Source of the DNA: Gemmatimonadales bacterium
Lineage (GTDB): Bacteria; Gemmatimonadota; Gemmatimonadetes; Gemmatimonadales; GWC2-71-9
DNA: 64,000 bases
Assembly (NCBI GenBank): GCA_044866195.1
Contig: JBIOTT010000024.1
Location: 4,849 to 68,848, forward strand
Direction: 5' to 3'
Under the pieces are notes generated by a model, which worked only from the letters and a program-made list of their open reading frames with translations, had not been told where the DNA came from and searched no databases. Each line of letters opens with the position of its first letter. The stretch's first letter is position 1. Of this stretch, positions 35,904 through 61,945 are shown piece after piece. The position numbers and the translations under genes are program-made.

Positions 35904-35985
35904 GAAAAAGCGTAAACGGTAAACGGTGAACGGGGGCTCCGATGATTCAAGGAGCCCCCGTTTACCGTTTACGCGGTTTCTTTTC
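35904..35985. terminator. Bidirectional intrinsic terminator between the ICL-family gene and hflX
   Basis: A 22-bp stem (35919-35940 pairs with 35951-35972, one G-U) with a 10-nt loop. It is preceded by agaaaaag and followed by ggtttcttttc. The arms are built from gtaaacg heptamers. Confidence 0.75.
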
Positions 35986-37234
35986 GTGGTGCCCGCTGCA
36001 CCACCCGTCCGCCAGCTTTTAGCTGTTCCGCCCTCCACGGCTCCAGCCTTACCGTCACTTCCTGCTCGACCCCCTCGGCCTTCACACCCAGCACCTCGCC
36101 GTCGCGGTAAAGTGCGGCCAGCTGGGCTCCGTCTGAGACCGGTACCCGCACGACCACCGTCACCCGCCCAGCCCGCTCCAGCTCGCGCAGCCGCGCCTTG
36201 AGCGCGGACAGGCCATCGGTCCGCATGGTCGTGGCCATCACCGCGCCGGGGTGGAGCTCCCGTACTCGCACCGCGAATTGGGTCGGGTCGGGCAGCAGGT
36301 CGATCTTGTTGAAGACGACCACCAGCGGCCGGTCGGAAAGATCGAGCTCGCCCAGGACGCCCTCGACCACCCATATCTGCTCCTCCCAGTCGGGGTGGCT
36401 CGCGTCGACCACGTGCAGCAGTGCGTCGGCCGCACGGGCTTCCTCCAGCGTGGCGCGGAAGCTCGCCACCAGGTGGTGCGGCAGTTTCCGGATGAAGCCA
36501 ACCGTGTCGCTCACCCGGCCCCGGATCCCTTCCCCCAGATCGACTTCGCGGGTGAGCGTGTCCAGGGTGGCGAAGAGCCGATTCTCCACCAGAATGTCAT
36601 GCTCTCCCGAAAGCCCCCGGAGAATGCTGGACTTGCCCGCGTTGGTGTAGCCCACCAGCGCAAGGCTCAGCATCGGGTCGCGCCCGGCGCGCACGTTTTC
36701 TCGGTGGCGCTCGACGTCCTTGAGCTTGAGCTTGAGCGCCTGGATCCGGCGGCGGATGATACGGCGGTCGGTCTCCAACTGGGTCTCGCCCGGGCCCCGG
36801 AGCCCGATACCGCCCCGGATACGGGACAGGTGGGTCCACATCCGGGTCAGCCGAGGAAGGAGATACTCGAGCTGGGCCAGCTCCACCTGCAGCTTGGCCT
36901 CGTGGCTTCGGGCCCGAGTGGCGAAGATGTCGAGGATCACCTCCGCCCGATCCATGACCCGGATCTTGAGCTCACGCTCCAGATTGGCGCCCTGAACCGG
37001 CGTCAGCTCCTCATCGAGAACGAGCAGCGTCGCCCCGACGTCGGCGACGGTTCCTTTGATCTCCTCGACTTTGCCCTCGCCGACCAATGTGGCCGGATTG
37101 GGCGAAACGACTTGCTGCGATACTCTCGCCACGACGTCGGCGCCAGCGGTGTCCACCAACTGGGCCAGCTCGTCGAGGTGCTCGGTCATGACCCGGGCGT
37201 CCGCCGAGCCTTTGCGGGGCGCCGCGACCAGCAC
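35969..37234 (-). CDS. hflX: GTPase HflX
   Basis: G1 motif GYTNAGKSS, plus DTVGF and NKID. The HflX N-terminal domain pattern is ELAQLVDTAGA. Confidence 0.9.
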   Translation of the reverse strand: MLVAAPRKGSADARVMTEHLDELAQLVDTAGADVVARVSQQVVSPNPATLVGEGKVEEIKGTVADVGATLLVLDEELTPVQGANLERELKIRVMDRAEVILDIFATRARSHEAKLQVELAQLEYLLPRLTRMWTHLSRIRGGIGLRGPGETQLETDRRIIRRRIQALKLKLKDVERHRENVRAGRDPMLSLALVGYTNAGKSSILRGLSGEHDILVENRLFATLDTLTREVDLGEGIRGRVSDTVGFIRKLPHHLVASFRATLEEARAADALLHVVDASHPDWEEQIWVVEGVLGELDLSDRPLVVVFNKIDLLPDPTQFAVRVRELHPGAVMATTMRTDGLSALKARLRELERAGRVTVVVRVPVSDGAQLAALYRDGEVLGVKAEGVEQEVTVRLEPWRAEQLKAGGRVVQRAPRKETA

Positions 37235-37304
37235 GGCGCGCTCGATCGGATCCCGGACGTTGATTAGTTCGCGAATGGGAGCTGCATCCTCACAGGAAAA
37301 GGAA

Positions 37305-38645
37305 TCATTCTTGAGCCTGCTTCTGCTGGGCCCACCAGGCCAGCCGTTCGGCCACGCGTTTCTCGTACCCCATGTCGCCGGGGGTGTAGAAGCTGGTTCC
37401 CCGTAGCTCGTCCGGCAGGTATTCCTGCGCCAGGTATCCCGTCGGCGAATCGTGCGCGTAGCGGTATCCGGCGCCGTATCCCAGCTGCTTCATGAGCGGC
37501 GTCGGAGCGTTCCGGATGTGCAGAGGCACCGGAGCGGCGGGGGAGTTGCGGGCTGCCTCGAGCGCCTGGCCCAGCGCCTCTTTGGCGCTGTTCGACTTGG
37601 GTGCGGTTGCGAGATAGATCGTCATCTCCGCCAGCGGCAGGTATCCCTCCGGGGGACCTAGCATGTGGAACGCGTCCCGCGCCGCGACAGCGATCACCAG
37701 CGCGTTGGGGTCGGCGAGCCCGATGTCTTCGGCCGCCATAGCGATGGCTCGGCGGAAGAGCGTCATGGGATCCTCGCCGCCTTCGATCATGCGCGCCATC
37801 CAGTAGAGCGCCCCCTGCGGATCGCTGCCGCGAAGCGACTTGTGGTACGCCGATAGCAGGTTGTAATGCTCCTCACCCGCCTTGTCGTAGCGCGCGAACC
37901 GCTTCTGCATCGCTTCCCGGGCCAGCTCGACCGTGATCCTGCCATCCGTCGCGGCGTGCGCGGCCGAGGCCTCGAGCACGCTCAGCGCCCGGCGCGCGTC
38001 GCCGTCGGCCTCGTCCGCGATAAAGGCGAGCGCCTCCGGATCGGCCTGAAGCTCGAGCTCGCCCAGCCCGCGCTCCCGGTCGGCCAGCGCCCGCTCGATC
38101 AGCGCCAGTAAGTCCGGCGCGGAGAGGGCCTCCAGCACGAAGACTCGGGTCCGGGAGAGCAGCGCGCCGATCACCTCGAAGCTGGGGTTCTCGGTGGTCG
38201 CACCGATCAGGCTGATGGTACCGTCTTCGGCGGGAGGCAGCAGGCTGTCCTGCTGGGCCTTGTTCAGCCGGTGGATCTCGTCGACGAACAGCACCGTCTC
38301 GGGCCCGCCGGCGGCCAGCTGCTGCTTCGCCTGAACCACGATCTCCCGGATGCGGGGCACACCCTCGCTCACGGCGCTGAAAGGGACGAACGTGCGTCCC
38401 GTCGCCCGGGCCAGCAGCTGCCCGAGCGTGGTCTTTCCCGACCCGGGCGGCCCCCAGAAGATCAGCGATCCCGGCGCCCCCTGCTCGATCAGCACCTGAA
38501 GCGGCTTCCCCGGGCCGAGCAAGTGCCGCTGCCCCACGAACTCGTCCAAAGTTCGGGGGCGCATGCGGCTCGCGAGCGGCTCCGCTCGCCGGGCGCCCGG
38601 AAACAGCGAGGGCTCTTCGGCGATGGCGGCGCGTCTGGGACCCAT
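37305..38645 (-). CDS. rarA: Replication-associated recombination protein A (RarA/MgsA AAA+ ATPase)
   Basis: [21 protein letters not shown], Walker [10 protein letters not shown], and [15 protein letters not shown]. Start re-picked at ATG 38645. Confidence 0.9.
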
Positions 38646-38657
38646 GCCAGGGAAGAT

Positions 38658-38689
38658 AGGCGGACGGGCGAACAGGCGGACGGGCGAGG
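38658..38689. repeat. Four tandem GGCGGAC-type octamers (intergenic)
   Basis: aggcggac gggcgaac aggcggac gggcgagg, between the ZIP stop and the rarA start. Confidence 0.8.
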
Positions 38690-38710
38690 TGGTGCCGCTC
38701 CCGCCGGCCG

Positions 38711-39415
38711 TCACCGTATCAGCCACTCGGCGGCGAAGAAAGCGGCCACCCCACCCACGAAAGACACCGCCGATACCCACCGGCGGCGGTTCTGAAACTC
38801 CGGCACCAGGTTGGACGCGGCGACGTACAGTGTCACACCCGCCGACAATGCGAGCCCATGCCGAGCCAGCGGAGCGACAGCTTCCGTGAGAACCGCGCCG
38901 AGCAGCGTGGCCAGCCCCAGCCCGGTGGCGGAAGCCACCGCCCGCCCCTTGCTCTGTCCGCCCGCGAGCATCATGCTGGCGATGGTCACGCCTTCCGGCA
39001 GCTTGTGCACCAGAACGGCCAGGAACAGCAGCAGGCCGAGCCGGCTGGAGGCGAGAAATCCGCTGGCAATCGCCACTCCATCGAAGAAGGTGTGCAGCGA
39101 CAGGCCGACCAGGGCGGTTACTCCGGTGGCGGCGCTGACCCGGTGGGTCTCCTCGCCATAGTGGAAATGCGGATTCATCACATGCTGGGCGAAATGGACC
39201 GCGAGATAGCCGGCGAGAACGAACCAGGCGGCGCCCGCCCCGTCCTGCAACGCGGTGGGGAACACCCCGATTACGGTGACCGCGAGCATGAATCCCGCCC
39301 CGAAAGCGATTCCCGCGTCGATCGCGTGCAGGCTCCGATGCAGATGGCGCACCACGGCCAGGGCGCCCACGACATTGCCAAGGGCGGCGGCGACCGCAAA
39401 CCCGAGCAGAATCAC
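38711..39415 (-). CDS. ZIP family divalent-metal transporter
   Basis: 234 aa and polytopic. Has HTFFDGVAIASGF and VLVHKLPEGVTIASMM, typical of the ZupT family. Confidence 0.85.
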   Translation of the reverse strand: MILLGFAVAAALGNVVGALAVVRHLHRSLHAIDAGIAFGAGFMLAVTVIGVFPTALQDGAGAAWFVLAGYLAVHFAQHVMNPHFHYGEETHRVSAATGVTALVGLSLHTFFDGVAIASGFLASSRLGLLLFLAVLVHKLPEGVTIASMMLAGGQSKGRAVASATGLGLATLLGAVLTEAVAPLARHGLALSAGVTLYVAASNLVPEFQNRRRWVSAVSFVGGVAAFFAAEWLIR

Positions 39416-40635
39416 GTGAGGTTCCGTACCAGGGCGGTGAGCCGATCGGGAGTGTTGAGCGACGGATCGTCGAGGACGCGCTCGAGCAGCTGATCGAGCA
39501 CCTCACCCACCCGGGGACCGCGCGGCACGCCCAGGGCGAGCAGGTCGTTGCCGTCGAGAGCGAGCTCTCCCCGGGTAATCGGCTCTCGCCGGCGCCGGAT
39601 CTCGGCCACCGCGCCGGCCCAGGGCGCGTCGCTGCCGTGACGGAGCCGCCACAGCGCGAGCAGGTCGTCCGCCGCGGGGCCGGCGGTGGCGAGCCACCGT
39701 CGCACCCCGGCCGCGGTTTGATCCCGGGGCTCAGCCGGCGCCTGTGCGATGGCTTCGGCCCGGCCGATCTCTGCATTCGAACCCTTGAGCCGCTGCAGCA
39801 CGGTCCCGGGCTTGGCGCACTGGAGGGCAACCAGCAGCACCGGGTCGCGAGGCTCCCGGTCGACGTCGGTGACCGAGTAGTCGCTGCCAGCGACGGGCCC
39901 GCGCACCAGCTCCGGGAGCCAGATCGCAGCGGCCCCCACCGCCTGCCAGAGCTCCACCAGCCGGGCAACCGAACGAGCGGTGCGGAGTCCCTTGAACAGC
40001 TCGTCGCGCACCCGTTCGGCGGAGAGCTGCGCCAGCCCGGGCGCAGCGGCGCGGGCCGCCTCCCAGGTCGGCGGATCGATGGTGAACCCGAACCGCGCAG
40101 CGAAGCGGAGCGCGCGGAGAATCCGAAGGTAGTCCTCCCGGAATCGCTCCTCCGGCACTCCCACCGCCCGGACGATGCCTTTCTCCAAATCGGCGGCTCC
40201 GCCGAACGGGTCGCGCCACTCGTGGCGGAACGGATGATAGGCAATCGCGTTGATCGTGAAGTCGCGGCGGGCGAGGTCTTCGTCCAGCGACACGCCGTAC
40301 GCCACGACGGCATGGCGCCCATCGGTGCTGACATCGCGGCGAAATGTGGTTACCTCGTGCAGCACTCGCCGCCGGTCCAGCACGCCGATGGTGCCGTGTT
40401 TGGACCCGATGTCCACCGTCCGCTTGCGCGGGAACAGTGCCTGGACCTGCTCCGGCCGCGCCGAGGTGGTGAAGTCGATGTCGGCTGCGGGGAGCGGACG
40501 CCCCTCCCACGCCGTGCCGAGCAGCGCGTCGCGGATGGCTCCCCCGACGCACCAGACCTCGTACCCGGCGTCTTCCAGACCCCGAGCAATGTCGAGCGCT
40601 TCATCTGGGATCTGGAGCTTAGATGGGAACCTCAT
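39412..40635 (-). CDS. cca: tRNA nucleotidyltransferase / poly(A) polymerase family (CCA-adding enzyme-like)
   Basis: VWCVGGAIRDALLG, DIDFTT and RRDFTINA. Start re-picked at ATG 40635. Confidence 0.75.
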   Translation of the reverse strand: MRFPSKLQIPDEALDIARGLEDAGYEVWCVGGAIRDALLGTAWEGRPLPAADIDFTTSARPEQVQALFPRKRTVDIGSKHGTIGVLDRRRVLHEVTTFRRDVSTDGRHAVVAYGVSLDEDLARRDFTINAIAYHPFRHEWRDPFGGAADLEKGIVRAVGVPEERFREDYLRILRALRFAARFGFTIDPPTWEAARAAAPGLAQLSAERVRDELFKGLRTARSVARLVELWQAVGAAAIWLPELVRGPVAGSDYSVTDVDREPRDPVLLVALQCAKPGTVLQRLKGSNAEIGRAEAIAQAPAEPRDQTAAGVRRWLATAGPAADDLLALWRLRHGSDAPWAGAVAEIRRRREPITRGELALDGNDLLALGVPRGPRVGEVLDQLLERVLDDPSLNTPDRLTALVRNLT

Positions 40636-40645
40636 CGCGACCGGC

Positions 40646-41605
40646 TCACCCGCCGTAGGGCACGCCGGCCGAGAGCGAGAGCAGCAGCTCCATGCGGGCC
40701 TGTGAAGGGGTGCGCGGCCCAGCCGGGACGACGCCCATGGACACGAGCCCCGCGCCGCCGCCCTCGAAGGCGTAGACCGGCGTGACCACGCCCGTGGGGC
40801 AGCGACTGGCAAGCACCACCGGCTTGCCCTCATCCAGCCAGCGTTGAATCGCCGGGATGGCGCCGGGGGGCAGGTTGCCGCTTCCGAAGGCCACGATCAC
40901 GACGCCGTCGTAGCGCGGCCGGGCCAGCTCGAGCATTTCTCCCTGGTCGCCGATCACCATGGGAACCAGGGCGACGCGCGGGCCGGAGGCCGCCAGGCGG
41001 GCGGCAGGCAGGCGGGCCGGCGCGCAGGCGGGCAGAGCGTACTCGACGCGGCCGCCTTGAACCGTCCCCAGGGCCACTCCGTGCGGGGCCGCAAAGGCGT
41101 CGAGCCGCATGGTGTCCGTCTTCACCGCCTCGTGTCCCGCGAAGACCTGCCCGGCGAACACCACGATGGCGCCGCGACCAGCGCTCCCTGGGCTCGCGAC
41201 CACTGCGGCCGCGTCCCGGAGATTGCGGGGACCATCCCAATCGGCGTCGCTGGATGTGCGCATCGCACCGGTGATCGCAACCGGGATGGCGGGGTCGAGC
41301 GTCCGCGCCAGCAGGTAGGCCGTTTCTTCTATCGTGTCGGTCCCATGGGTGATCACGATACCGCGCGGCCGATCCGGGTCTGCGGTCTGGATCTCGCGCA
41401 CCCGATTCCGCAGCGCCCAGAGGCGCTCCGGTCCCAGGTGCGCGGCCGGCACCCGGGCCCAGTTCTCGATCCGAAAGGGGGCGATCCGGTCGAGCCCCGG
41501 GATCCGGGCGACAAGTTGCTCGCCGTCGTGCGCGGGCACGTTCCCGCCGGCGGCCGGATCGTGGTGCATGGAGATCGTACCGCCGGTGAAGAGGAGATGA
41601 ATCAC
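40646..41605 (-). CDS. ansA: L-asparaginase (type I-like)
   Basis: FTGGTISM and ITHGTDTIEETAY signatures. GTG start at 41605 (GTGA overlap). Confidence 0.85.
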   Translation of the reverse strand: MIHLLFTGGTISMHHDPAAGGNVPAHDGEQLVARIPGLDRIAPFRIENWARVPAAHLGPERLWALRNRVREIQTADPDRPRGIVITHGTDTIEETAYLLARTLDPAIPVAITGAMRTSSDADWDGPRNLRDAAAVVASPGSAGRGAIVVFAGQVFAGHEAVKTDTMRLDAFAAPHGVALGTVQGGRVEYALPACAPARLPAARLAASGPRVALVPMVIGDQGEMLELARPRYDGVVIVAFGSGNLPPGAIPAIQRWLDEGKPVVLASRCPTGVVTPVYAFEGGGAGLVSMGVVPAGPRTPSQARMELLLSLSAGVPYGG

Positions 41606-42366
41606 TGATCGGCTGGGCTCAGCAGCCGGCGCAGGCGCTCGAGCAGCGAGGGCCGGAGCTCGAGAGGCTCGACCAGCCGCATCGGCTGATCGGACAGGAC
41701 GGCCGCAGGATTGTACCGCGTCAGCAGATCGGCCTGGATGTCCCCGCCATGCTCTTCGATCAGGCGCCGGCCGGCGAGCAGCATCCGGGTGTCGCCGTGG
41801 TTGTCGGCAGCGATGATGTCCGCCAGGCCGGTCGCGATCAGCTGGCGAGCTCGCTCGCCCCGGCCCCTGGGTGTAAGGAGCGTTGTCGCATCCACCTGCA
41901 TGAAGGCCCCCACCCGACGCCACCGCTCCACGGCGGGCACCGAGCAGGAGGTGTAGCGCTCCGGGTGCGCCAGCACCGGCGCCAGGCCAAGCGATACGAT
42001 GTGGGCCAGCGCGTTGCTCACGGTGGCGCCCGCCACCATGCGGGGGAACTCGACCAGGATATACCGGCTGCCGCCGAGTCGCACACCCGGGTTCGCCGCG
42101 GCGGCTTCGCCCAGGGGCCGGTCCAGCATGACTTCGGCGCCGCGATGCAGCAACGGGGCTCGGGGGGCTGCCGCGCGCAGGGTCTCGAACGCCGCGTCGT
42201 GGCGCGCCGGAACCCCCTCCTCGGCCCGGCTGGCGAGCAGGTGCGGCGTGAGGCAGAGCTCGGTGACGCCGTTCCGGGCCATCTCACGGAGTGTGGCGAC
42301 GGCCTGCTCCACCGTGCGAGCCCCGTCGTCGACCGCGGGCAGGAGATGCGAATGGAGGTCGATCAC
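41602..42366 (-). CDS. PHP-family manganese-dependent protein-tyrosine phosphatase (CpsB/YwqE type)
   Basis: MIDLHSHLLPAVDDGA and LCLTPHL, with AHPERY and ADNHG matching CpsB metal-binding motifs. Confidence 0.8.
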   Translation of the reverse strand: MIDLHSHLLPAVDDGARTVEQAVATLREMARNGVTELCLTPHLLASRAEEGVPARHDAAFETLRAAAPRAPLLHRGAEVMLDRPLGEAAAANPGVRLGGSRYILVEFPRMVAGATVSNALAHIVSLGLAPVLAHPERYTSCSVPAVERWRRVGAFMQVDATTLLTPRGRGERARQLIATGLADIIAADNHGDTRMLLAGRRLIEEHGGDIQADLLTRYNPAAVLSDQPMRLVEPLELRPSLLERLRRLLSPADQ

Positions 42367-42686: not shown

Positions 42687-45406
42687 CCGCCGTTGCCAAG
42701 CCAGGCTGCTACCACGGCAGGGGTCTGGGCCCGCGCATCCCCCAATCGAGCCGGATCGCCGGCGCCAGCCGATGCGAAGTGGGGCCGGCCGCCGCCCTTG
42801 CCGCCGCTGATGGCCGCGATCCGATTTACCAGATCTCCCGCCTTTCGTCCGGCGCTCACCAGATCCTCGCTCAGGGTGACGTGAATCGCGCCCCGACCCG
42901 CGGTGCCGAAGAGCACCAACACGGCGTTGCGCCGGCCCTCCCGAAACCGGTCGGCGATCTGACCCAGCTCATTCCGATCGTCGGTGGCGGTCTCCGCCAT
43001 GGTCAGCTGCACCTGATCCACCTGCAGAGTCTCGCCCTCGGCCGGGCCGGTCCCGCCGGACCGGCGGGCATCCTGGAGCCGCGCCTCGAGCCGCTGCCGG
43101 TCTTCGAGCAGTTGGTCGATCTTTCGCGCCAGGTGCTCCGGCTGGGCCTTGAGCCGCTCCGCCGCCTTGGCGATGCGGTCGTCGAGCTCCTGCAGCACGG
43201 CGTAGGCGGTTGGGCCGGTCACGGCCTCGATCCGCCGAACGCCGGCCTGAACCCCGCCCTGCCCCTTGAAGCGGAACAGGCCGACCTGACCGGTGCTGCG
43301 GACATGAGTGCCGCCGCACAGCTCGATCGAGTCGCCCATCTGCACCACCCGAACCACGTCGCCATACTTCTCGGTGAAGAATGCCATCGCGCCCAGGTCG
43401 AGCGCATCGCGGTACGGCATCTGCCGCGTGATGGTCTCGTAGTTGGCCCAGATCTGCTCGTTCACATCCCGCTCGATGGCGCGGAGCGTCTCCGGGTCGA
43501 TCGGCTCCTGATGCGTGAAGTCGAAGCGAAGCCGATCGGGCTCGACCAGCGAGCCAGCCTGCCGCACGTGGCCACCGAGATGCCGGCGCAAGGCCAGGTG
43601 GACGAGGTGAGTGGCGCTGTGGTTGCGCTCGATGTTGCGGCGGCGCGGAGTATCGACCATCGCCTCGACCGGGGTGGGATCGAACGACTCGCCGAAGCTG
43701 CCGCCGATCACCGTGCCCTTGGCCGGGTCCTTCCGCACACTGTCGACCTCGAGCGTCCAGCCGCTGCCGGCCACCGAGCCGGTGTCGCTGACCTGGCCGC
43801 CCGATTCCGCGTAGAACGGATTCTCCCGCAGCACGAGCTCGACCCGATCGCCCGCCTGGCGAAATGCCAGCAGGGCGGAGTCGGTCTGGGTCGTATCGTA
43901 CCCCACGAATTTCTGCTTGCCCCGCTTGAGCGTGCGCCAGGCGGTCGGATCCTTCGCGTGCACCGCAGGGCCGCGCGCCGGCTGCCGCCGGAACGCCCCG
44001 TCCTGCTCGACCGCCGCCGCATCCACTCCCACCGTGGCCTCCCGGCGCGCCGCACGGGAACGCTCCCGCTGCTCGGCGAGCGCGCGCTCGAACCCGGGCA
44101 GGTCGACGCGCACGCCCCGCTCGCCGGCGATGATCTCGGTGAGATCGATGGGGAAGCCGTAGGTATCGTAAAGCTTGAACGCCTCCTCCCCGGCGATCGT
44201 TTCGGCGCCGGTGGCGAAGATTTCGTCCAGCCGCTTGAGCCCGCCGTCGATCGTCTCGAGAAACCGTTCCTCTTCTGCCCGGGTGGTGTCGTGGAGATAT
44301 CCGGCCTGGCCCACCAGCTCGGGATAGATGGCGCCCATCTCGCGCACGACCACGTCGGTGAGCGGGGCGAGGGTGGGCTCGCGCCGGCCCAGCAGCCACG
44401 CGTGCCGGACGGCCCGGCGCAGGATCCGCCGCAGGACGTAGCCGCGGCCTTCGTTGCTGGGGTAGATCCCGTCGGCCAGCAGGAAGCTCACCGCCCGCGC
44501 GTGGTCCGCCAGCACCCGATACGAGGTGCTGCGGGCCCGGGCGTCGACGTTGGGATCGTCGTCATGGACGTAGTCGTACGGCCGCCCAACCAGCTCGCCC
44601 ACCCGATCGAGCAGCGGGCGGAACAGGTCGGTGTGAAAGTTGTCGTCTTCCCCCTGCATCACCGCCGCGATCCGCTCGAGACCGGCTCCGGTGTCGACCG
44701 AGGGCCGGGGCAGCGGAGTGAGCACCCCATCCAGAGCGCGATCGAACTGCATGAAGACGAGATTCCAGATCTCGAGAAACCGGCCCTCCTCGGCCAAACG
44801 CTCGAAATCTGCCTGGGCGACGACCTCCTCTGTCCGCCCGTCCGCCTGTCCGCCTGTCCGCCTGTCGAGGTCGACGTAGATCTCCGTACTCGGGCCACAG
44901 GGACCGGTGTCGCCCATCTGCCAGAAGTTGTCTTTGTCGCCCAATCCGTAGATCCGGTGGTCGGGAAGGCCCGCGATCTCACGCCAGAGCGCGCGGGCCT
45001 CCTGATCGCTGTGGTGCACCGTGACCCGCAGGCGGTCGGGGGAGAGGCCGAGCCCATCCTTGCCGGTGACGAGCTCCCAGGCGAACGCGATGGCGTCGCG
45101 CTTGAAGTAGTCGCCGAAGGAAAAGTTCCCCAGCATCTCGAAAAAAGTGTGGTGCCGCTTGGTGTGGCCGACCTGCTCGAGGTCGTTGTGCTTGCCCCCC
45201 GCGCGGACCACCTTCTGGCAGGTGGCCGCCCGGACATACTCGCGCCGCTCCTGTCCGAGAAACACACGCTTGAACTGCACCATGCCGGCGTTGGTGAACA
45301 GCAGCGTCGGGTCGTCCTTGGGTTCCAGGGACGAAGAGGGCACCTTGCGGTGCCCCCGGGCGACGAAGAAGTCGAGGAAAAGCCGGCGGATGTCAGCGGA
45401 ACGCAT
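42683..45406 (-). CDS. alaS: Alanine--tRNA ligase
   Basis: MRSADIRRLFLDFFVARGHRKVPSSSL, FTNAGMVQFK, GDTGPCGP, and the editing-domain HSATHL...CGGTH. Confidence 0.95.
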   Translation of the reverse strand: MRSADIRRLFLDFFVARGHRKVPSSSLEPKDDPTLLFTNAGMVQFKRVFLGQERREYVRAATCQKVVRAGGKHNDLEQVGHTKRHHTFFEMLGNFSFGDYFKRDAIAFAWELVTGKDGLGLSPDRLRVTVHHSDQEARALWREIAGLPDHRIYGLGDKDNFWQMGDTGPCGPSTEIYVDLDRRTGGQADGRTEEVVAQADFERLAEEGRFLEIWNLVFMQFDRALDGVLTPLPRPSVDTGAGLERIAAVMQGEDDNFHTDLFRPLLDRVGELVGRPYDYVHDDDPNVDARARSTSYRVLADHARAVSFLLADGIYPSNEGRGYVLRRILRRAVRHAWLLGRREPTLAPLTDVVVREMGAIYPELVGQAGYLHDTTRAEEERFLETIDGGLKRLDEIFATGAETIAGEEAFKLYDTYGFPIDLTEIIAGERGVRVDLPGFERALAEQRERSRAARREATVGVDAAAVEQDGAFRRQPARGPAVHAKDPTAWRTLKRGKQKFVGYDTTQTDSALLAFRQAGDRVELVLRENPFYAESGGQVSDTGSVAGSGWTLEVDSVRKDPAKGTVIGGSFGESFDPTPVEAMVDTPRRRNIERNHSATHLVHLALRRHLGGHVRQAGSLVEPDRLRFDFTHQEPIDPETLRAIERDVNEQIWANYETITRQMPYRDALDLGAMAFFTEKYGDVVRVVQMGDSIELCGGTHVRSTGQVGLFRFKGQGGVQAGVRRIEAVTGPTAYAVLQELDDRIAKAAERLKAQPEHLARKIDQLLEDRQRLEARLQDARRSGGTGPAEGETLQVDQVQLTMAETATDDRNELGQIADRFREGRRNAVLVLFGTAGRGAIHVTLSEDLVSAGRKAGDLVNRIAAISGGKGGGRPHFASAGAGDPARLGDARAQTPAVVAAWLGNGG
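44831..44866. repeat. Tandem octamers (t/c)gtccgcc x4 inside alaS
   Basis: tgtccgcc cgtccgcc tgtccgcc tgtccgcc tgtc. On the coding strand this reads DRRTGGQADGRT, in a variable catalytic-domain loop. Confidence 0.85.
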
Positions 45407-45432
45407 TGGGGGAAAATATAGGCGGGGAAGCT

Positions 45433-45570
45433 AGCGGGCAGCTAATCCGCTATCCGCTATCCGCTAGCCGCCAAGGCACGAGGATCTCGGCCGCTCGGAG
45501 ATGCCTGCGCGCGAACGGATAGCAGCGGATGGCGGATAGCGGATAGCCGATAGCGGGGTAGCGGCCAGCT
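45433..45570. repeat. Long imperfect inverted repeat built from atccgct/agcggat heptamers (recX-alaS intergenic)
   Basis: Arms 45433-45472 and 45531-45570 give ~34 of 40 positions paired by hand. The 58-nt loop contains a nested hairpin (ggca..atctc/gagatgcc). The recX stop codon lies in the right arm. Confidence 0.8.
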
Positions 45571-46186
45571 ACCCAAGCACCCCTGCCACTGCCTCGAGCG
45601 CCTCCCGGCCGCCGAACCCTCGCCGCGCGAGATAGGCCAGCAGTCGGCGACGCTTCACCGGCCGCGGCAGGCCCTCCAGCTGGGCGGCACGCTTGGCGGC
45701 GAGTGCCGCCGGAAGCGCGCGGCGGTCGGTGTCGGCGGGCCACTGCTCGGCGATGGCCGTATCGATGCAGCCGCGGGCAACCCCCAACATGCTCAGGTCT
45801 CGGGCCAGGCGGGCCGGCCCGCGACCGCGCTCGGCTCGCGTGGCCACGTAGTGGCGGGCGAACGCCAAGTCGTCCAGCAGCCCCGCACGCTCCGCCCGGG
45901 TCAATGCAGCTTCGACCGCCTCGGCAGCCAGGCCCCGCCGCTGCAAGCGCCGGCCCAGATCCACCCGTGCGTGGGGACGGCGCTCCAGCGCGCGGAGCAC
46001 GGTGCGATAGGCGGCTTCGATATCGGCGGCCCGGGCCAGCCGCTCACTGGCCGGCCCATCGAGCGCCTGGCCCGATCCGAGCCCCGCAACCGCATCGCGA
46101 TCGACCGTGGCGAACGGCCGGCCCTCTACCAGCACCCGCACGCTGCCCGGGCGGCGAGGATCGGCCTCGATCGCGGTGACGATCAC
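45569..46186 (-). CDS. recX: Recombination regulator RecX
   Basis: RecX helical repeats ([29 protein letters not shown]...FARHYV). GTG start at 46186 (GTGA overlap with the recA stop). Confidence 0.85.
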
Positions 46187-47226: not shown

Positions 47227-47282
47227 TGGGACGACCTCGATATAAACGTGGATGATTTTGCTACACCTGAGTACTGCCAACC

Positions 47283-47311
47283 AAGATATTACCGAATACT
47301 TCCCGAATCAA
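47283..47311 (-). promoter_or_regulatory. Candidate sigma70-type promoter of recA
   Basis: On the minus strand, TTGATT-17 nt-TATCTT, ~55 nt upstream of the recA ATG. This is pattern only. Confidence 0.35.
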
Positions 47312-47353
47312 GAGGTTTCTACTGGCTGATTTTGCACCATAATGGGTTTTTCA

Positions 47354-47461
47354 CCACGGAGGCACGGAGGCACAGAGCACGATCGATGTGGCTTCGCGAG
47401 CCGCGATCTCAAGCCCCAGGCCACCACCCCAAACCACCTCTGTGCCTCCGTGCCTCCGTGG
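47354..47461. repeat. 108-bp element with perfect 24-bp terminal inverted repeats (MITE-like or I-shaped terminator)
   Basis: ccacggaggcacggaggcacagag (47354-47377) is the exact reverse complement of 47438-47461, with a 60-nt spacer. TTTTCA is present immediately on both sides (47348-47353 and 47462-47467). Confidence 0.7.
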
Positions 47462-47503
47462 TTTTCAGTTTCTGCCTTTTCTGCCTTTGCGGCTGACGCT
47501 TTG

Positions 47504-47902
47504 TCATACCCTCCATGCGTCCTGCAGGTGCTCCACCGCCGGCTCGCCCGAAGCACCCTCCCATACGCTCACCACGTCGAACCGGTATCCGTCGTTTGCC
47601 CGGCCGAACCGCGACTGCCAGCAGGCGGCGACCCGCGCCAGGATTGCCTGCTTCCGGGCGCTGACGGCTTCGGCCGGTGCGCCACAGCGGGCGCTCTTTC
47701 GGGTTTTCACTTCGACGAAAGCAATCAGGCGGCCGCGACGGGCCACCAGATCGAGATCGTGCCGGCCGAAGCGGAACCGATGGGCTTCGATCTCCCAGCC
47801 GCAGGAGACCAGATATGCGAGCGCCACCAGCTCGCCCCGCAAGCCACGAATGTGGCGGCGATCGGTCCATTGGGCGGCGGGAACAAACGACGGATCAGGC
47901 AT
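47504..47902 (-). CDS. yraN: YraN family (UPF0102) endonuclease-like protein
   Basis: GELVALAYLVSCGWEIEAHRFRFGRHDLDLVARRGRLIAFVEVKTR. Confidence 0.8.
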   Translation of the reverse strand: MPDPSFVPAAQWTDRRHIRGLRGELVALAYLVSCGWEIEAHRFRFGRHDLDLVARRGRLIAFVEVKTRKSARCGAPAEAVSARKQAILARVAACWQSRFGRANDGYRFDVVSVWEGASGEPAVEHLQDAWRV

Positions 47903-47976
47903 GCAGCGAAACTAGGAAAGCACCGTGGGGGGCGGCCCATCCAATCCGCGCGGGCCAGCGCCGAATCATCGGCGAC

Positions 47977-49080
<1,104 letters not shown>

Positions 49081-55350: not shown

Positions 55351-55528
55351 CAATGTAAAGTGGCCGCCGCGTGACGCGGGTGCGGCCCTGCCGTTCGAAT
55401 CTCTTCCCGTTTGCGGGGCGCCCACCTGCGGGCCTACTTCGGCTGGTCTATCGCTCGAGAATTTCGAGTGGAGCCTGGGCGAGGCGAAGCGGTGCGGATG
55501 GCCATCGAAGGGATGCGTTTGGGCCGGT

Positions 55529-57007: not shown

Positions 57008-57165
57008 TATGCAGGCATCGAAGAGGACCGGGGATCACCAATCGCACTGGGCACCAAGCCGAAATCTATGCGGGTGGCTGAGAAGTTGGGTTGCCGTTCC
57101 CAACGTCGGATTGCACCCGCCATTTCCGCTGACCTCCTGGTCGAACCCGACCCGACCGCGCCTCA

Positions 57166-59481
57166 ATGACGCGGGCTGGCGAATGCATCCGACTCTGGGC
57201 CGCGCTGCGAACCGCGCCCATGGCTGTGGTGACCCTCGCTGTCCTGGGCTGCCCCGGGCCTCTTCCGGGACCGAGCGGCCCCATCCAACCTGCCGGCCAA
57301 GCCGGCGCCTCCCCGATGGACCGATTCGTAGACTCTCTGCTGGCGCGGATGACCCTCGAGGAGAAGCTGGGCCAGCTGACTCAGTCGACCGGACCGGGCA
57401 GCAACACCGGCCCCGCCGCGCGGGCAGGTACCGACGCCGACATCCGGGCCGGCCGGGTCGGTTCCTTCCTCGGCGTTCGCGGTGCGGCGTACACCCGCGA
57501 GCTCCAGCAGATTGCGGTCGAGGAGAGCCGGCTCGGCATTCCGCTCCTCTTCGCCGACGACGTCATCCACGGTTACCGAACGATCTTCCCGGTGCCACTG
57601 GCCGAGGCATCCACGTGGGATCCGGCCGCGGTGGAGCGTTCGGCCCGGATCGCCGCAGTGGAGGCCACCGCCAACGGGGTCCATTGGACCTACGCGCCGA
57701 TGGTCGATATCGCACGCGACCCCCGCTGGGGTCGGGTGGTGGAAGGGACGGGGGAGGACCCCTACCTCTGCTCGGTCATGGCCGCAGCGCGGGTGCGTGG
57801 CTTCCAGAGCCCCGATCTCTCGTCCGACAGCACCCTCCTCGCTACCGCCAAGCATTTCGCGGCTTATGGCGCTGCTGAAGGCGGGCGCGATTACAACACG
57901 GCAGACCTCTCGGACCGGACTCTTCACGAGATCTACCTCCCACCCTTCAAGGCCGCCATCGACGCTGGCGCCCAATCGGTGATGGCGGCGTTCAACGAGA
58001 TCGCCGGCCTGCCGATGCACGCGAACCGGCCCTTGATTCGCGGCGTGCTCCGCGACGCCTGGGGTTTCGACGGAGTGGTGGTCAGCGACTACACCGGGAT
58101 CCTCGAGCTGATCCGCCACGGGATCGCCGCCGACAGCGCCGCGGCGGGCCGGCTGGCGCTCACCGCCGGGGTCGACGTCGACATGGTGAGCCGGATTTAT
58201 CTGAGCCAGCTCCCACACCTCGTGCATGGGGGAGCGGTGGCCGAGTCCCTGGTGAACCAGGCCGTGCGACGAATACTGCGGGCGAAGTATCGGCTCGGGC
58301 TCTTCACCGACCCGTACCGCTACAGCGATCCGGCACGGGAGCGGGCTCGCACGCTCACGTCGGAGCACCTGGCAGCGGCGCGCGAAATGGCCCGGAAATC
58401 CATCGTACTGCTCAAGAATTCGGGGCAGACGCTTCCGCTCTCGAAGGGTCTCGGTACCCTGGCGGTCATCGGCCCCCTGGCTGACGACGCGGCCTCCACG
58501 CTGGGCCCTTGGGCCGGGGCAGGGCGGCCCGAAGACGCCGTGACGGTGCTCGCTGGGATCCGGCGAGCCGTTCCCGCCGGAACCCGCGTGCTCTACGCCA
58601 CGGGCGCCGAGACGCGGGGTGAAGACACGACCGGCTTCGCGGAGGCCGTCCGGGTCGCGTGGCAGGCGGACGCAGTGGTTCTGGTGCTAGGGGAAGACCG
58701 GGACATGAGCGGGGAGGCCAACAATCGCACCTCGCTCGACCTCCCGGGTGTGCAGCAGCAGCTGGCCGAACGGGTGCAGGCGACCGGGAAGCCGGTGGTC
58801 GTGGTGCTGATGAACGGCCGCCCGCTGTCCACTCCGTGGCTCGATGCCCAGGTTCCGGCGATCATCGAGGCATGGTACCTGGGTGTGCAGACTGGCCCAG
58901 CGGTCGCCGACGTGCTGTTCGGCGACTACAACCCTGGCGGCAAGCTCCCGATAACCGTGCCGCGCAGCGTGGGCCAGGTCCCCATCTACTACAACCACAA
59001 GCCGACCGGGCGTCCGCCCGAGGAACGGGAGCGGTACAGCTCCAAGTACCTCGACGAGCCCTGGACCCCGCTCTACCCCTTCGGCTACGGTTTGAGCTAC
59101 ACGGCTTTCGCGTACGACAGCCTCCGCCTGAGCACCGCGCGGCTTCGTCGATCCGATTCGGTCGAGGTGAGCGTCAGGGTGACCAACACCGGCCGGCACG
59201 CGGGCGACGAGGTGGTCCAGCTCTATGTTCGCGATGAGGTCGCGAGCAGCACCCGGCCGGTGCTGGCGCTACGCCGGTTCGAGCGGATCACGCTGGCACC
59301 GGGAGAGGCACGCACGGTGGCGTTCACGCTGCGCGCCGACGACTTCGCGTTTCCCGGTCCCGATTTGGAGCCCCTTGTCGAGCCGGGCTTCTTCACCGTG
59401 GGCGTGGGGACCAGCTCGGCAGACCTGCAGCAAGCGCGTTTCGAGCTGGTGAGTGAGTTATCGCCCCGGGCCGCGCCGTGA
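57166..59481 (+). CDS. bglX: GH3 beta-glucosidase (BglX-like), secreted or lipoprotein
   Basis: MTLEEKLGQL, GIPLLFADDVIHG, DPRWGRVVEGTGEDP, GVVVSDY, and the C-terminal fibronectin-like domain pattern EVVQLYVRD. Confidence 0.9.
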   Translation: MTRAGECIRLWAALRTAPMAVVTLAVLGCPGPLPGPSGPIQPAGQAGASPMDRFVDSLLARMTLEEKLGQLTQSTGPGSNTGPAARAGTDADIRAGRVGSFLGVRGAAYTRELQQIAVEESRLGIPLLFADDVIHGYRTIFPVPLAEASTWDPAAVERSARIAAVEATANGVHWTYAPMVDIARDPRWGRVVEGTGEDPYLCSVMAAARVRGFQSPDLSSDSTLLATAKHFAAYGAAEGGRDYNTADLSDRTLHEIYLPPFKAAIDAGAQSVMAAFNEIAGLPMHANRPLIRGVLRDAWGFDGVVVSDYTGILELIRHGIAADSAAAGRLALTAGVDVDMVSRIYLSQLPHLVHGGAVAESLVNQAVRRILRAKYRLGLFTDPYRYSDPARERARTLTSEHLAAAREMARKSIVLLKNSGQTLPLSKGLGTLAVIGPLADDAASTLGPWAGAGRPEDAVTVLAGIRRAVPAGTRVLYATGAETRGEDTTGFAEAVRVAWQADAVVLVLGEDRDMSGEANNRTSLDLPGVQQQLAERVQATGKPVVVVLMNGRPLSTPWLDAQVPAIIEAWYLGVQTGPAVADVLFGDYNPGGKLPITVPRSVGQVPIYYNHKPTGRPPEERERYSSKYLDEPWTPLYPFGYGLSYTAFAYDSLRLSTARLRRSDSVEVSVRVTNTGRHAGDEVVQLYVRDEVASSTRPVLALRRFERITLAPGEARTVAFTLRADDFAFPGPDLEPLVEPGFFTVGVGTSSADLQQARFELVSELSPRAAP

Positions 59482-59671
59482 GGCGATGCGCCCGAGAGCG
59501 GGGGTCGATGGCTGCCATGATCGGTGCCTGGTGCCCGCGTCGACCGGCGTGAGCCAGTTCTGGGTCGGATTGAACGCGTCACGAAAACCGTAGATCCCAG
59601 AGCAGGTGACCGAGGTCGTGGCACAACTGCCGCACCGCGACGGGACCGCCCGTCCCCATCGCTTGCGGGCT

Positions 59672-61945
59672 CTAGCTGCAGTACTCCTCGACCTGGTCGA
59701 TCCCGATCCGGACGTCGCGCGGCTTGCTCCCGTTCTGGGGACCGAGAATCCCTGCCTCTTCCAGCTGATCCATCAGGCGGGCCGCGCGGCCGTAGCCGAT
59801 GCCGAGCTTGCGTTGGAGGAGCGAGGTGGAGCCGCCCTGGTTCTGCACGCAGGCGATCGCGGCGTCCTTGAAGAGGGGGTCTCGCTCGGACGCGTCGAAG
59901 GGTTCGCCGCCGGCCGCTTCGCCCGCTTCGGTGTCCGGCACCTCGTCCAGGATGTTGGTCTCCACGGCCTCCGTGGCCCCGCGCTCCTTCTGTTCCCGCA
60001 CCCACTCGCGATACCGCTTCATAAGCTTCTCGGTCTCCTCGGTGCCGATGTAGGCCCCCTGAAGGCGCATCGGCTCGCTCTTCCCCGGCTCGAGGAACAG
60101 CATATCGCCTTTGCCAAGCAGGGCCTCGGCCCCGTTCTGGTCGAGAATGGTGCGGCTATCCACCTTCTGCGCGACCCGGAAGGCGATCCGGCTGGGGAAG
60201 TTGGCCTTGATCAGCCCGGTGATGACGTTCACCGAGGGTCGCTGGGTCGCCACGATCAGGTGCAGGCCCACGGCCCGCGCCTTCTGCGCCAGTCGCGCGA
60301 GGTGCAATTCCACCTCGGCTTGCACGGTCATCATGAGATCGGCCAGCTCGTCCACCACCACGACGATCAGGGGCAGCTTGCCCTGGGTATAGACCTCGTC
60401 CTGCGACGGCTGGGGCGGCGTGTCCGGCGATTCCGCCGCGATTTCGATGAGCGTGATCTTCTTGGGCACGGGGTTCCTGAGCGGCTTGCCGTCGGCAACC
60501 TTGCGGTTGAAGTCGGTGACGTTGCGCGCGCCGTTCGCCTCGAGCAGCGCGTACCGCCGCTCCATCTCCCCAACCGCCCACTTGAGAACTACGGCGGCCT
60601 CCTTGTAGTTCGTCACCACCGGGTGGCGCAGGTGCGGCAGGCCGTTGTACATCGAGAGCTCGACCATCTTGGGATCGATCATCAGAAGCCGCAGGTCTTC
60701 CTTGTGCTGGTATTGGTACAGCAGCGATGTGATGATCGCGTTGATCCCGACCGATTTGCCGGTGCCGGTGGCGCCCGCGATGAGGAGGTGCGGCATCTTC
60801 CCCAGGTCGGCGATGACGGGACGGCCCTCGAGATCGAGGCCGAGCGCGACGGGGAGAAGGCGATCTTCGCCCTGCCAGGTCTCGTCCTCCAGCAGCTCGC
60901 GAAGCATGACCACCCGCGATTTGGGGTTGGGCACTTCGACGCCGACCATGTCCCGTCCCGGAATCCGAGCCACCCGGATCGAGCGCGCACTCATCTTGAG
61001 CGCGAGATCGTCGGCCAGGGTGACCAGCCTATTCATCTTGACGCCGGGCCGGAGGCGAACGCCGTACTGCGTGACCACCGGCCCGGTGGTGCGCCCGGCG
61101 ACATCGCCCTCGACTTTGAACTCGGCCAGCGTAGCCTCGAGTCGTTCCTGCAGCGAGTCGAGCTCGCTCTCGCCGGCATCGACCGCCTTCCCGGAGGGAG
61201 GATCGAGGAGCTCGACGTCCCACACGGCGGACAGGCGGACAGGCGGACGGGCGGGCAGGGCGGCCCGGCGGACGGGCGGACGGGCGGACGGAGACTTCGG
61301 TGTACTAAAGCCAGCTTGGACGCCGGGAGCGCCGTCCGCCTGCCCGCCTGCCCGCCTGCCCGCCTGGTCCGCCTGTCCGCCTGTCCGCCCGTCCGCCCTG
61401 TCCGCCTTGTCCGCCTGTCCGCCGGTCCGCTTGCCGGCCCGTCCGCCCGTCCGCCCGTCCGCCTCCAACCGCTGCAGCGGATGCCACGCGAAGGTGAGCA
61501 GGGTGAGCGCCGAGAGTGCGAGAAATCCCAGCAGCACGGCCCCTGCGAGGCCGACCCGGTCCGAGACCACCTCCGCCAGCATGCCGGGGAGCAGTCCCGC
61601 GAGTCGGGCCGGCAGGGCGCGCTGCTCCACGTCCGGGACCAGATCCAGGTAGCTCACCTGGGTCACCACGCCGACGAGATAGGGCAGCAGCAAGCTCAGT
61701 CCGACCATCAGCGCCGCCGCTCGCTTCATGTCGAGCCGGCCGAGCCGCTCGAATCCTGCGAGCGCGAGGCCCAGGCCTAGCAACGGGAGTCCGATCGCGC
61801 CGGCGCCGAGCGCGTGCCAGAGCGCGTGGCCGATCCAGCGCCCGACCGGGCCGGTGAGCGCAAACGGGAGTAGCGTGAGCCCGACGAAGACGCCGAGCAC
61901 CAGCGCCGTAATGGCGCCGAGCCGGCGGCGGGAGTCGGCGGTCAT
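59672..61945 (-). CDS. ftsK: DNA translocase FtsK/SpoIIIE
   Basis: N-terminal TM domain. Walker A AGATGTGKSV, plus VVVVDELADLMM, IVATQRPSVNVITG, and a C-terminal gamma (winged-helix) domain STSLLQRKLGIGYGRAARLMDQLE. Confidence 0.93.
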   Translation of the reverse strand: MTADSRRRLGAITALVLGVFVGLTLLPFALTGPVGRWIGHALWHALGAGAIGLPLLGLGLALAGFERLGRLDMKRAAALMVGLSLLLPYLVGVVTQVSYLDLVPDVEQRALPARLAGLLPGMLAEVVSDRVGLAGAVLLGFLALSALTLLTFAWHPLQRLEADGRTGGRAGKRTGGQADKADRADGRTGGQADQAGRRAGGQADGAPGVQAGFSTPKSPSARPPVRRAALPARPPVRLSAVWDVELLDPPSGKAVDAGESELDSLQERLEATLAEFKVEGDVAGRTTGPVVTQYGVRLRPGVKMNRLVTLADDLALKMSARSIRVARIPGRDMVGVEVPNPKSRVVMLRELLEDETWQGEDRLLPVALGLDLEGRPVIADLGKMPHLLIAGATGTGKSVGINAIITSLLYQYQHKEDLRLLMIDPKMVELSMYNGLPHLRHPVVTNYKEAAVVLKWAVGEMERRYALLEANGARNVTDFNRKVADGKPLRNPVPKKITLIEIAAESPDTPPQPSQDEVYTQGKLPLIVVVVDELADLMMTVQAEVELHLARLAQKARAVGLHLIVATQRPSVNVITGLIKANFPSRIAFRVAQKVDSRTILDQNGAEALLGKGDMLFLEPGKSEPMRLQGAYIGTEETEKLMKRYREWVREQKERGATEAVETNILDEVPDTEAGEAAGGEPFDASERDPLFKDAAIACVQNQGGSTSLLQRKLGIGYGRAARLMDQLEEAGILGPQNGSKPRDVRIGIDQVEEYCS
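61226..61464. repeat. Inverted arrays of GGCGGAC(A/G) octamers inside the ftsK linker
   Basis: About 8 units of ggcggac(a/g) at 61226-61291, a 41-nt spacer, then about 16 units of the reverse complement (c/t)gtccgcc at 61333-61464. Confidence 0.9.

Follow-up and report, generated by a model that had tools for sequence, protein, structure and literature searches.

Background

Paired arrays of short tandem repeats that face each other on opposite strands have been described in two bacterial groups. In Xanthomonas (Rehm et al. 2015, PLoS One, PMC4692102), each genome carries about 185 arrays of the heptamer GGGAATC with 2-26 units, and 70-75 pairs per genome are convergent, on opposite strands and with the G-rich array first; the arrays are mostly intergenic, near or overlapping the upstream stop codon, with 7-11% in genes, their length varies between close species, they are not tied to mobile elements, and quadruplexes were discussed while the origin was left undecided. 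In Geobacter metallireducens (Aklujkar et al. 2009, PMC2700814), paired sites built of 3-5 tandem units lie on opposite strands at variable distance, 24 of the pairs consisting of octanucleotides, 21 of nonanucleotides and 8 of heptanucleotides, with several unit families in one genome; these "global regulator binding sites" were interpreted, untested there, as binding IHF/HU, and 49 GGACCGG x4 elements were found within and between genes, the report giving supplementary alignments only and no origin analysis. Here we describe four hairpins in a 64,000-nucleotide (nt) stretch of the chromosome of a Gemmatimonadales bacterium (63-72% G+C; GenBank:JBIOTT010000024.1, positions 4,849 to 68,848; hereafter the window), which are inverted pairs of 7-8-nt microsatellite arrays and belong to a family widespread in Gemmatimonadota.

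The Gemmatimonadota arrays share with those of Xanthomonas the tandem G-rich heptamers, the convergent pairs, the proximity to stop codons and the variation in length. They differ in that Xanthomonas has one dominant unit with a GGG run, whereas here several families of 7 or 8 nt, mostly with GG runs, share only the core R-CGG-D (R, purine; D, any base but C); the intragenic share is higher, at about 10 of 23 pairs here versus 7-11% in Xanthomonas (PMC4692102), and the Xanthomonas work did not describe two things found here, intragenic pairs in essential genes and arrays on either side of conserved codons. A sequence-only reading of the window had considered the design not to be a described class; in this it was partly right, as paired inverted arrays were already known from the two groups above (PMC4692102, PMC2700814) but had never been named, and their cause is still unexplained. 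What is new is the phylum, the several 7- and 8-nt families with one core, a quantified polarity, the frequent in-frame pairs in essential genes, some of which flank conserved residues, and the overwriting of sequence by units at strain level.

Heptamers are also over-represented as intergenic tandem repeats in cyanobacteria and Beggiatoaceae (short tandemly repeated repetitive (STRR) sequences, GGGGAYT, TAACTGA; PMC4679880, PMC4692102), where the origin is unexplained and slippage tied to the polymerase footprint has been offered. These arrays are mostly solo, inverted pairs being rare in Nostoc and one being found in Beggiatoa; their units differ from those here, and the TAACTGA arrays lie upstream of start codons, unlike the gene-end arrays of Gemmatimonadota. 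A formal analogue is provided by the palindromic microsatellite repeats of Fusarium mitochondria (Ponts et al. 2020, PMC7218506), which are optional between close species, indel-associated and proposed to be mobile, but reside in AT-rich eukaryotic organelle DNA and have no sequence relation to the present arrays. In a full-text literature search, no description of such repeats for Gemmatimonadota was found, and the literal repeat strings appeared in no paper. Mrazek (2007) and Mazel (1990) reportedly give the heptamer microsatellite background for cyanobacteria and Beggiatoaceae.

Four inverted array pairs in the window

With a purpose-written scan for tandem units of at least 7 nt followed by their reverse complement within 200 nt, exactly four clusters of the form (unit)n–spacer–(reverse-complement unit)n were detected in the window, with 10-119 supporting hits apiece (Table 1). 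In 60 first-order Markov shuffles, clusters supported by five or more hits averaged 0.02 and never exceeded 1, and none of the named units was expected, in dinucleotide-preserving shuffles, to be tandem on one strand and again tandem on the other nearby. No other inverted repeat in the window has arms as long as 16 nt, and the four sites fold much more stably than shuffled sequence (z -4.8 to -8.1). Tandem Repeats Finder (TRF), an inverted-repeat finder and a pattern search agreed with our scan in placing the four hairpins where the sequence-only reading had placed them, and its proposal of one recurring design arising from a process, rather than chance or four unrelated terminators, was borne out. 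At all four sites each arm is a tandem array of at least two units of 7-9 nt (TRF, pattern search), and the complementary array on the opposite strand follows after a spacer of 10-60 nt in the window and of up to about 120 nt in relatives. The gene map, drawn from third-position G+C and Pfam, confirmed that sites 1-3 lie at gene ends and site 4 in the FtsK linker.

Like most of its relatives, the window was assembled from a metagenome, and since such assemblies often get tandem repeats wrong, the exact unit counts may be in error. That the pairs arose by chance or as an assembly artefact is nevertheless effectively refuted, as the shuffles fall at about 0.02 clusters versus the four observed, the ftsK pair is present in six independent assemblies with reading frames intact and site 2 in two assemblies, and the pattern is known from finished Xanthomonas and Geobacter genomes.

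Table 1. Positions (window coordinates) and content of the paired, solo and neighbouring arrays
Feature	Position	Strand	Content
Site 1, 5′ array	35912-35932		GTAAACG GTAAACG GTGAACG
Site 1, non-repeat inner stem	35933-35958		GGGGCTCC / GGAGCCCC, 10-nt loop
Site 1, 3′ array	35959-35972		CGTTTAC x2
Site 2, left array	45432-45473		About 6 CCGCTA-type heptamers, inner perfect, outer degenerate
Site 2, spacer	45474-45529		56 nt, unique, with a small stem of its own
Site 2, right array	45530-45571		AGCGGAT-type units from 45524, about 6 complementary units
Site 3, left arm	47353-47377		ACCACGGAGGCACGGAGGCACAGAG
Site 3, spacer	47378-47437		60 nt, unique
Site 3, right arm	47438-47462		Perfect complement of left arm
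9-mer tandem repeat beside site 3	47469-47488	+	TTTCTGCCT x2.2
Site 4, first array on + strand	61222-61291		GGCGGACR x8 (61226-61291); C-rich second array in the ftsK mRNA (- strand), encodes ...PSARPPVRRAALPARPPVRLSA
Site 4, spacer	61292-61329		38 nt, encodes part of the FtsK linker (GAPGVQAGFSTPK)
Site 4, second array on + strand	61330-61464		YGTCCGCC x16.6; G-rich first array in the ftsK mRNA, encodes ADGRTGGRAGKRTGGQADK...
Solo array, site-4 family	44830-44866	-	GCGGACAG x4.6, in frame in a variable alaS loop
Solo array, site-4 family, partly degenerate	38658-38687	-	Between upstream stop codon and probable rarA start
Degenerate array	40975-41035	-	GCGGGCAG-type octamers in asparaginase gene, protein ...PACAPARLPAARLAAS...

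Occurrence and placement in relatives

The comparison DNA (loci designated by L numbers) consisted of 80 genome loci centred on recA, 80 metagenome loci centred on alaS and six loci of ftsK. The AlaRS metagenome scan yielded mostly distant relatives, with nine loci at 57% identity or more; it was the source of L089, L090 and L094, served as a cross-phylum control, and provided no copies of sites 1-3 at strain level. Of the 36 long inverted repeats in 487 kb of Gemmatimonadota DNA, 19 had arms with a period of 7 or 8 nt (3.9 per 100 kb), against 7 of 86 in 1.83 Mb from other phyla (0.38 per 100 kb), and 0.5% of random window segments were equally periodic. Inverted arms of this period are a property of the lineage, at roughly ten times the rate of other phyla. 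Within Gemmatimonadota the pair-rich loci were L004, L006, L011, L089, L090 and L094, others being nearly devoid of long hairpins, and L003, L005, L007-L010 and L012-L017 count as array-poor; clear pairs were also seen in Terriglobales, Geobacter, Phycisphaera and other contigs.

The 3′-end placement noticed at the window sites holds for the wider set, as about 12 of the 23 Gemmatimonadota pairs begin at -6 to +42 nt relative to a stop codon, in DNA of which intergenic sequence makes up only about 10%. The approximately 10 pairs within genes are in frame, the genes concerned being ftsK, alaS, hflX and rarA.

At least 120 viral contigs of IMG/VR carry (GCGGAWH)3; among the matches listed, (GCGGAWH)n arrays are very common and 13 of 115 are paired. 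Viral locus L196 has two pairs (203-330 and 2458-2560) with alike spacers (aattcaattgaatt...), L214:2-127 terminates in at least 18 units, and L209 (3200-3330) and L240 contain nested arrays of three different heptamers. The alike spacers of L196 and the viral arrays suggest that in some genomes whole pairs may be duplicated or mobile.

Unit families, common core and polarity

Unit statistics were based on 47 arrays with at least three copies and a period of 7-9 nt, comprising 29 distinct units. On the G-rich strand, CGG is present in 20 of the 29 (background 0.41, p = 0.002), with a purine ahead of it in 19 of these 20 (background 0.49, p = 1.3e-5) and a base other than C after it in 18 (background 0.58, p = 0.002), the consensus being R-CGG-D plus two or three free bases. 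The CGG that had been remarked on in all the units of the four sites is thus confirmed there and extends to the wider set. The G-rich array is 5′ in 30 of 34 independent pairs (p = 6e-6), a strand-symmetric property, and in three of the four window sites; the CCGCTAT family, including site 2, is a consistent exception in which the C-rich array comes first.

That each site seemed to have a different unit was a small-sample effect, as the units form recurring families with the common core. The GCGGRCAG family occupies 4-5 places within the 64-kb window, the site-4 unit recurring as solo arrays in alaS and upstream of rarA and in degenerate form in the asparaginase gene (Table 1); CCGCTAT is found at site 2, in its L094 orthologue and after tatA in L081; and CGGAACG is found at three loci, namely L089 hflX and two L090 sites. 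The units of sites 1 and 3 are single-copy in these data.

The site-3 unit CACGGAGG nearly equals the Terriglobales unit CACAGAGG (L069:4852-5023) and the G. metallireducens unit CACGGAGA (complement of TCTCCGTS; class 2 sites of PMC2700814). Near-identical octamers are thereby present as inverted pairs in Gemmatimonadota, Acidobacteriota and Desulfobacterota, by either convergence on a favoured unit or transfer. Two other Geobacter families, GTTGCTYN and MTYCTGA, are without the CGG core, unlike the units described here.

A core recurring at 7-8-nt spacing looks like a recognition motif, and the marked polarity belongs to the DNA as such. The arrays might accordingly act as DNA, either as iteron-like sites for a nucleoid or regulatory protein or through G-quadruplexes or cruciforms, as was proposed for Geobacter (protein binding, PMC2700814) and Xanthomonas (quadruplexes, PMC4692102), and the right arm of site 2 adjoins the alaS -10 box in two genomes. 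We hold such a role to be highly improbable as the explanation: beyond the core of 4-5 nt the units differ, which would leave a single protein hardly more than CGG to recognise; with runs no longer than GG, most units are weak quadruplex formers; arrays within ftsK, alaS and hflX are unlikely operators; and turnover is rapid among close relatives, with no candidate protein at hand.

Gain, loss and change of unit number

Gain, loss and changes in unit number, which the sequence-only reading had suggested looking for in related genomes, were all seen, at site 3, site 2 and ftsK, and the variation of unit number among orthologues agrees with the slippage that it had put forward. Site 4, with arms of 70 nt at 83% complementarity, is located inside ftsK (59672-61945), in the linker that joins the membrane domain to the motor domain. 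Every member of the closest ftsK clade has (GGCGGRCR)n ... (YGYCCGCC)n with differing copy numbers, about 16+8 units in the window versus 7-10 + 3-7 in L081, L082, L084 and L085; the six assemblies that contain the pair all belong to this one clade and come from different samples, and more distant FtsK proteins have an ordinary K/A/E/P linker. Across 120 homologues FtsK is 743-768 amino acids (aa) long although its linker of some 80 aa has been exchanged in full, in one clade for repeats, and this constancy of length points to selection on linker length rather than sequence.

Mutations are clustered inside the arrays. L084 and L289, whose FtsK proteins fall in one 90% cluster and are about 99% identical outside the linker/array, differ in their ftsK DNA at about 25 positions confined to 70 nt of the G-rich array, the other arm being nearly identical, and L084 has about nine units at the place where L289 carries unique sequence followed by four perfect units. 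Such a cluster would fit conversion or template switching, not point mutation, with a short recombination patch as the alternative. When the unit variants of the two ftsK arms were compared in order, the ACG variant seen in the left array of L084 recurred in the right arm, but the arrays are too degenerate for a firm call of template switching. In L081 the two ftsK arrays have diverged in unit variant, and having drifted apart they show that nothing maintains pairing there.

Site 2 is present in L094 (AlaRS 72% identical), shorter but with its unit unchanged, and absent in L088-L093. The pairs at the rarA stop codon have period 7 in L089 and period 8 in L090, their units being related without being identical, and arm lengths are often very unequal, for example 11 versus 3 units at L090:12937.

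Site 3 is located between yraN (UPF0102) and recA, upstream of the recA promoter and 41 nt past the yraN stop codon (47504-47506), and its perfect 25-nt arms contain CACGGAGG x2 + CACAGAG. The insert of about 150 nt is missing in the closest relatives, L001 and L002 (Gemmatimonadales metagenome-assembled genomes, RecA 90% identical): the yraN-recA spacer is 188 nt in the window versus 33-41 nt in these two, and the recA promoter block beyond it is conserved. By this comparison gain and loss are fast, and the 9-mer repeat adjoining the site appears to show more local slippage.

The conserved block upstream of recA, shared by the three closest genomes (window 47252-47320, - strand; L001:9935-9995; L002:1885-1947), has TTGATT-N17-TAATAT, a repeated TTCGG motif (ttgattcgggaagtattcggtaatat) and then a second promoter-like TTGGCA-N17-AATCAT, and may represent the recA promoter with an SOS-type operator of the phylum. 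About 850 nt upstream of recA in L001 (9056-9125), a perfect palindrome with 32-nt arms and a 6-nt loop lacks tandem periodicity and is a different sort of long hairpin in the same clade.

Arrays within conserved genes

One variable loop of alaS was found with three contents: the solo GCGGACAG array in the window, which adds RRTGGQADGRT directly before the conserved EIWNLVFMQF, GGGATGC/GGGAAGC in L006, and a full pair in L094 (CGGCGGAA x3, a spacer and the complement x3). In L089 hflX, GCGGAAC x4 and GTTCCGC x4 are separate insertions of 9 aa and 8 aa relative to the window HflX and border 40 conserved residues that include the NKxD motif; in L089 rarA, the conserved segment GDARRALNALE has an array on either side, and degenerate remnants occupy these positions in L090. 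Since the hflX and rarA arrays lie around pre-existing conserved codons, a single inserted module is excluded there; in hflX the layout agrees with an array having been copied to a second site close by, and the in-frame position within genes makes a terminator role impossible for such pairs. Two further candidates were rejected. An intragenic invertible segment would, upon inversion of the hflX or rarA segment, destroy conserved motifs, and telomerase-like end addition would not leave host sequence between the arrays.

These observations bear on whether the pairs are non-autonomous mobile elements of the MITE (miniature inverted-repeat transposable element), REP (repetitive extragenic palindromic) or Rickettsia palindromic type, with inverted ends made of tandem sub-repeats, that insert between genes and in frame into genes. 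One unit occurs at unrelated loci, site 3 is an apparent 150-nt insertion relative to L001/L002 with TGAAAA on both sides, and the two pairs of viral L196 have spacers that are related; IS insertions in G. metallireducens lie at a constant distance from sites of this kind (PMC2700814). The spacers of the four window sites are, however, unique: with blastn-short, the spacers and flanks of sites 1-4 gave only self-matches in about 3 Mb of DNA including the relatives, which means that there is no multicopy internal sequence. No transposase, REP-associated tyrosine transposase (RAYT) or reverse transcriptase was found by Pfam among about 40 window genes scanned, and no consistent target-site duplication was seen, the TGAAAA flanking site 3 being the sole case. 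Taken with the frequent solo arrays, the very unequal arms and the hflX and rarA arrays that flank conserved host codons, these results make mobile elements quite improbable, and the suggestion of a REP-like family found no support.

The palindromic elements of Rickettsia are palindromic sequences tolerated in frame in protein genes, and the in-frame palindromic inserts found here recall them. The tolerance in frame is shared, but a single module of about 100-150 nt, as in the Rickettsia type, is at odds with the two insertions in hflX and rarA, and the unique spacers, the lack of a consistent duplication and the host codons between the hflX arrays are likewise unlike MITEs. The likeness to REPs is in being palindromic extragenic repeats near stop codons; unlike REPs, bacterial interspersed mosaic elements (BIMEs) and Rickettsia elements, the present pairs have no conserved element sequence, their arms are microsatellites and can be separate insertions, and no RAYT was seen in the scanned window genes. 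REPs are conserved imperfect palindromes of 20-40 nt in many copies, headed by GTAG or CGTC; of the units here only that of L011 (GTAGACG) contains GTAG, and both units and spacers differ between sites.

Pairs at gene ends

Site 1 sits between a convergent ICL-family gene and hflX. Its 5′ array begins 14 nt past the TAG stop of the ICL-family gene (35895-35897), and the hflX stop (TAA, - strand, 35969-35971) falls within a CGTTTAC unit. Because its flanks are A-rich upstream and T-rich downstream (gcggtttcttttcg), site 1 resembles a bidirectional terminator and would be the one convincing structure of this kind; a G+C-rich stem with a short loop and a T/U tract was found at site 1 alone of the window sites. 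Site 3 has a T-tail on the + strand only.

Site 2 is located between recX and alaS, its right array overlapping the recX stop codon (45569-45571). The arms of 42 nt are 86% complementary, with ATCCGCT x3.9 at 45445-45471 and AGCGGAT x4.7 at 45524-45556 (TRF, pattern search), and the other edge of the hairpin is about 10 nt from the conserved alaS TATATT box (45415-45420). All the Gemmatimonadota alaS loci examined have this box 7-8 nt ahead of the start codon ATG (window 45404-45420, - strand; L088-L094), a spacing that suggests a leaderless alaS mRNA or one with a very short leader; the right arm of site 2 occupies the position where the -35 element of alaS would be.

In some gene-end arrays the upstream stop codon is inside the first unit (GTAAACG, GTAGACG, TGATTGCG, TAGCGTTTC; window 35966-35972, L011:4353-4360, L004:8722-8726 and 15387-15391, and L049:2824-2830). 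As 7 is not a multiple of 3, arrays of stop-containing heptamers put a stop codon in all three frames.

Placement of this kind raises the question of whether the pairs are selected RNA hairpins at gene ends, acting as terminators in a terminator-poor phylum, as REP-like barriers to 3′ exonucleases or as RNase III sites, with tandem arms as the cheapest way of lengthening a stem. The excess near stop codons relative to the small intergenic share fits this proposal, as do site 1 with its A-run, T-run and convergent genes, the conservation of site 2 in L094, and the retention of the rarA-end hairpin in L089 and L090 despite a change of unit and period on both arms; canonical terminator-like sites were not clearly enriched in the window (15 versus 8.3 +/- 3.4), and the Xanthomonas arrays lie at a mean of 28 nt from stop codons (PMC4692102). 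As an account of all the pairs, we nevertheless consider it unlikely, since nearly half of them are in coding regions, essential genes included, of 14 gene-end pairs only four carry a T-rich tail, loops as long as 40-120 nt do not resemble those of terminators, the arm mismatches have no G-U wobble bias, site 3 is missing in the closest relatives, and solo arrays of these units are common.

The likeness to intrinsic terminators lies in a stable stem just past the stop codon and, at site 1, in the A-run and T-run, and the differences lie in arms of 25-70 nt, the long spacers, the many copies in genes and the 10 of 14 gene-end pairs without a T-tail; the last count rules out that all pairs are intrinsic terminators. 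No Rfam match was obtained at gathering score in the whole window, and permissive thresholds applied to 35.7-47.7 kb gave two chance-level matches only (E 0.25-0.33).

Slippage and template switching as the probable origin

Our leaning, a mild one, is towards a lineage-wide microsatellite process that combines slippage with short-range template switching and whose products are kept where they are tolerated. Replication slippage would gain or lose whole units. Short-range template switching, in which the nascent strand would fold back on itself or jump to the other strand, would write the array in reverse-complement orientation nearby or overwrite neighbouring sequence with units. The products would survive only where extra sequence can be tolerated, namely in the few dozen bases that separate a stop codon from the signals of the next gene and in flexible protein loops and linkers, purifying selection confining them to these places, and the hairpin would be mainly a by-product of the making of the second array. 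We infer slippage because copy numbers differ between orthologues, and template switching because two separate insertions occur in some genes, strain-level differences are clustered, and the arms are highly complementary whatever their context.

Arm complementarity is alike for intragenic and gene-end pairs. The arm mismatches (5 GU, 2 AC and 19 other) have no bias towards G-U wobble and thus give no signal of RNA-level selection; with about 10 of the 23 pairs in frame in genes, the structure needs no terminator role, and a function is not needed to explain the architecture. Some gene-end copies, site 1 with its A-run and T-run foremost, may have been co-opted as terminators or 3′-end hairpins. 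Work on quasipalindromes (Ripley, Lovett, Löytynoja) is said to support template switching as well. Template switching between inverted-repeat arms has been documented (PMC13100816).

Several observations weigh against slippage and template switching as the full account: 1) the unit families CGGAACG, CCGCTAT and GCGGRCAG recur at unrelated loci, and as chance seeding of identical 7-8-mers is too rare, a sequence-specific driver or inter-locus transfer is needed, neither of which is supplied by plain slippage, 2) the R-CGG-D core and the G-rich-first polarity are not predicted by the model, 3) the unit of site 2 is kept at 72% AlaRS identity, which suggests constraint or repeated regeneration, 4) many arrays begin exactly at the stop codon, which could reflect function rather than tolerance, 5) the strain-level cluster of L084/L289 could be a short recombination patch instead, and 6) a template-switch event was never directly observed in the compared sequences. 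The unexplained core, polarity and recurrence of units limit our confidence in the model, and an anchored or selfish writing process is therefore kept open. In such a process the arrays would be written actively, either by strand-displacement and fold-back synthesis initiated at a nick or primer at R-CGG-D or as a gene-less selfish repeat that spreads by template switching. We judge it unlikely.

Other features of the window

Three further features were noticed in the window. At 14840-14892, a 25-nt direct repeat (GAATTGCTGATTAGCCCCTAGCATG x2.1, 96% identical) in a low-G+C spacer lies directly upstream of, and runs into, a methyltransferase open reading frame (ORF; 14875-15681) and is unrelated to the 7-8-mer arrays. 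An ORF of 375 aa without a Pfam match (21849-22976) contains a same-strand tRNA-Tyr (21907-21993, - strand), and the part over the tRNA is probably non-coding. The cluster at 3122-5550 comprises an RtcB ligase gene, an ORF with S30AE (ribosome-hibernation) and cold-shock domains (4569-5162), and an archease gene on the opposite strand; the S30AE and cold-shock ORF may be a fusion, or two genes merged by the stop-to-stop ORF call.

Implications

Bacteria have been known since 2007 to have an excess of heptamer repeats, for which, to our knowledge, there is no accepted cause. Gemmatimonadota provide a natural experiment on this question, with many families sharing one core, a strong polarity, pairs in essential genes and strains about 99% identical that differ in an array, and through them the origin of heptamer repeats becomes testable. 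Such hairpins should not be annotated as terminators by default, and hypervariable low-complexity loops in the conserved proteins of this phylum can be products of DNA-level repeats, not adaptive features. If the arrays were in fact written by an anchored or selfish process, this would jointly explain why the units have one core, why the G-rich array comes first and why identical units turn up at unrelated loci, and would also account for the heptamer-repeat excess in many bacteria; new disordered segments would then keep arising, as a side effect, in essential proteins such as FtsK, AlaRS, HflX and RarA.

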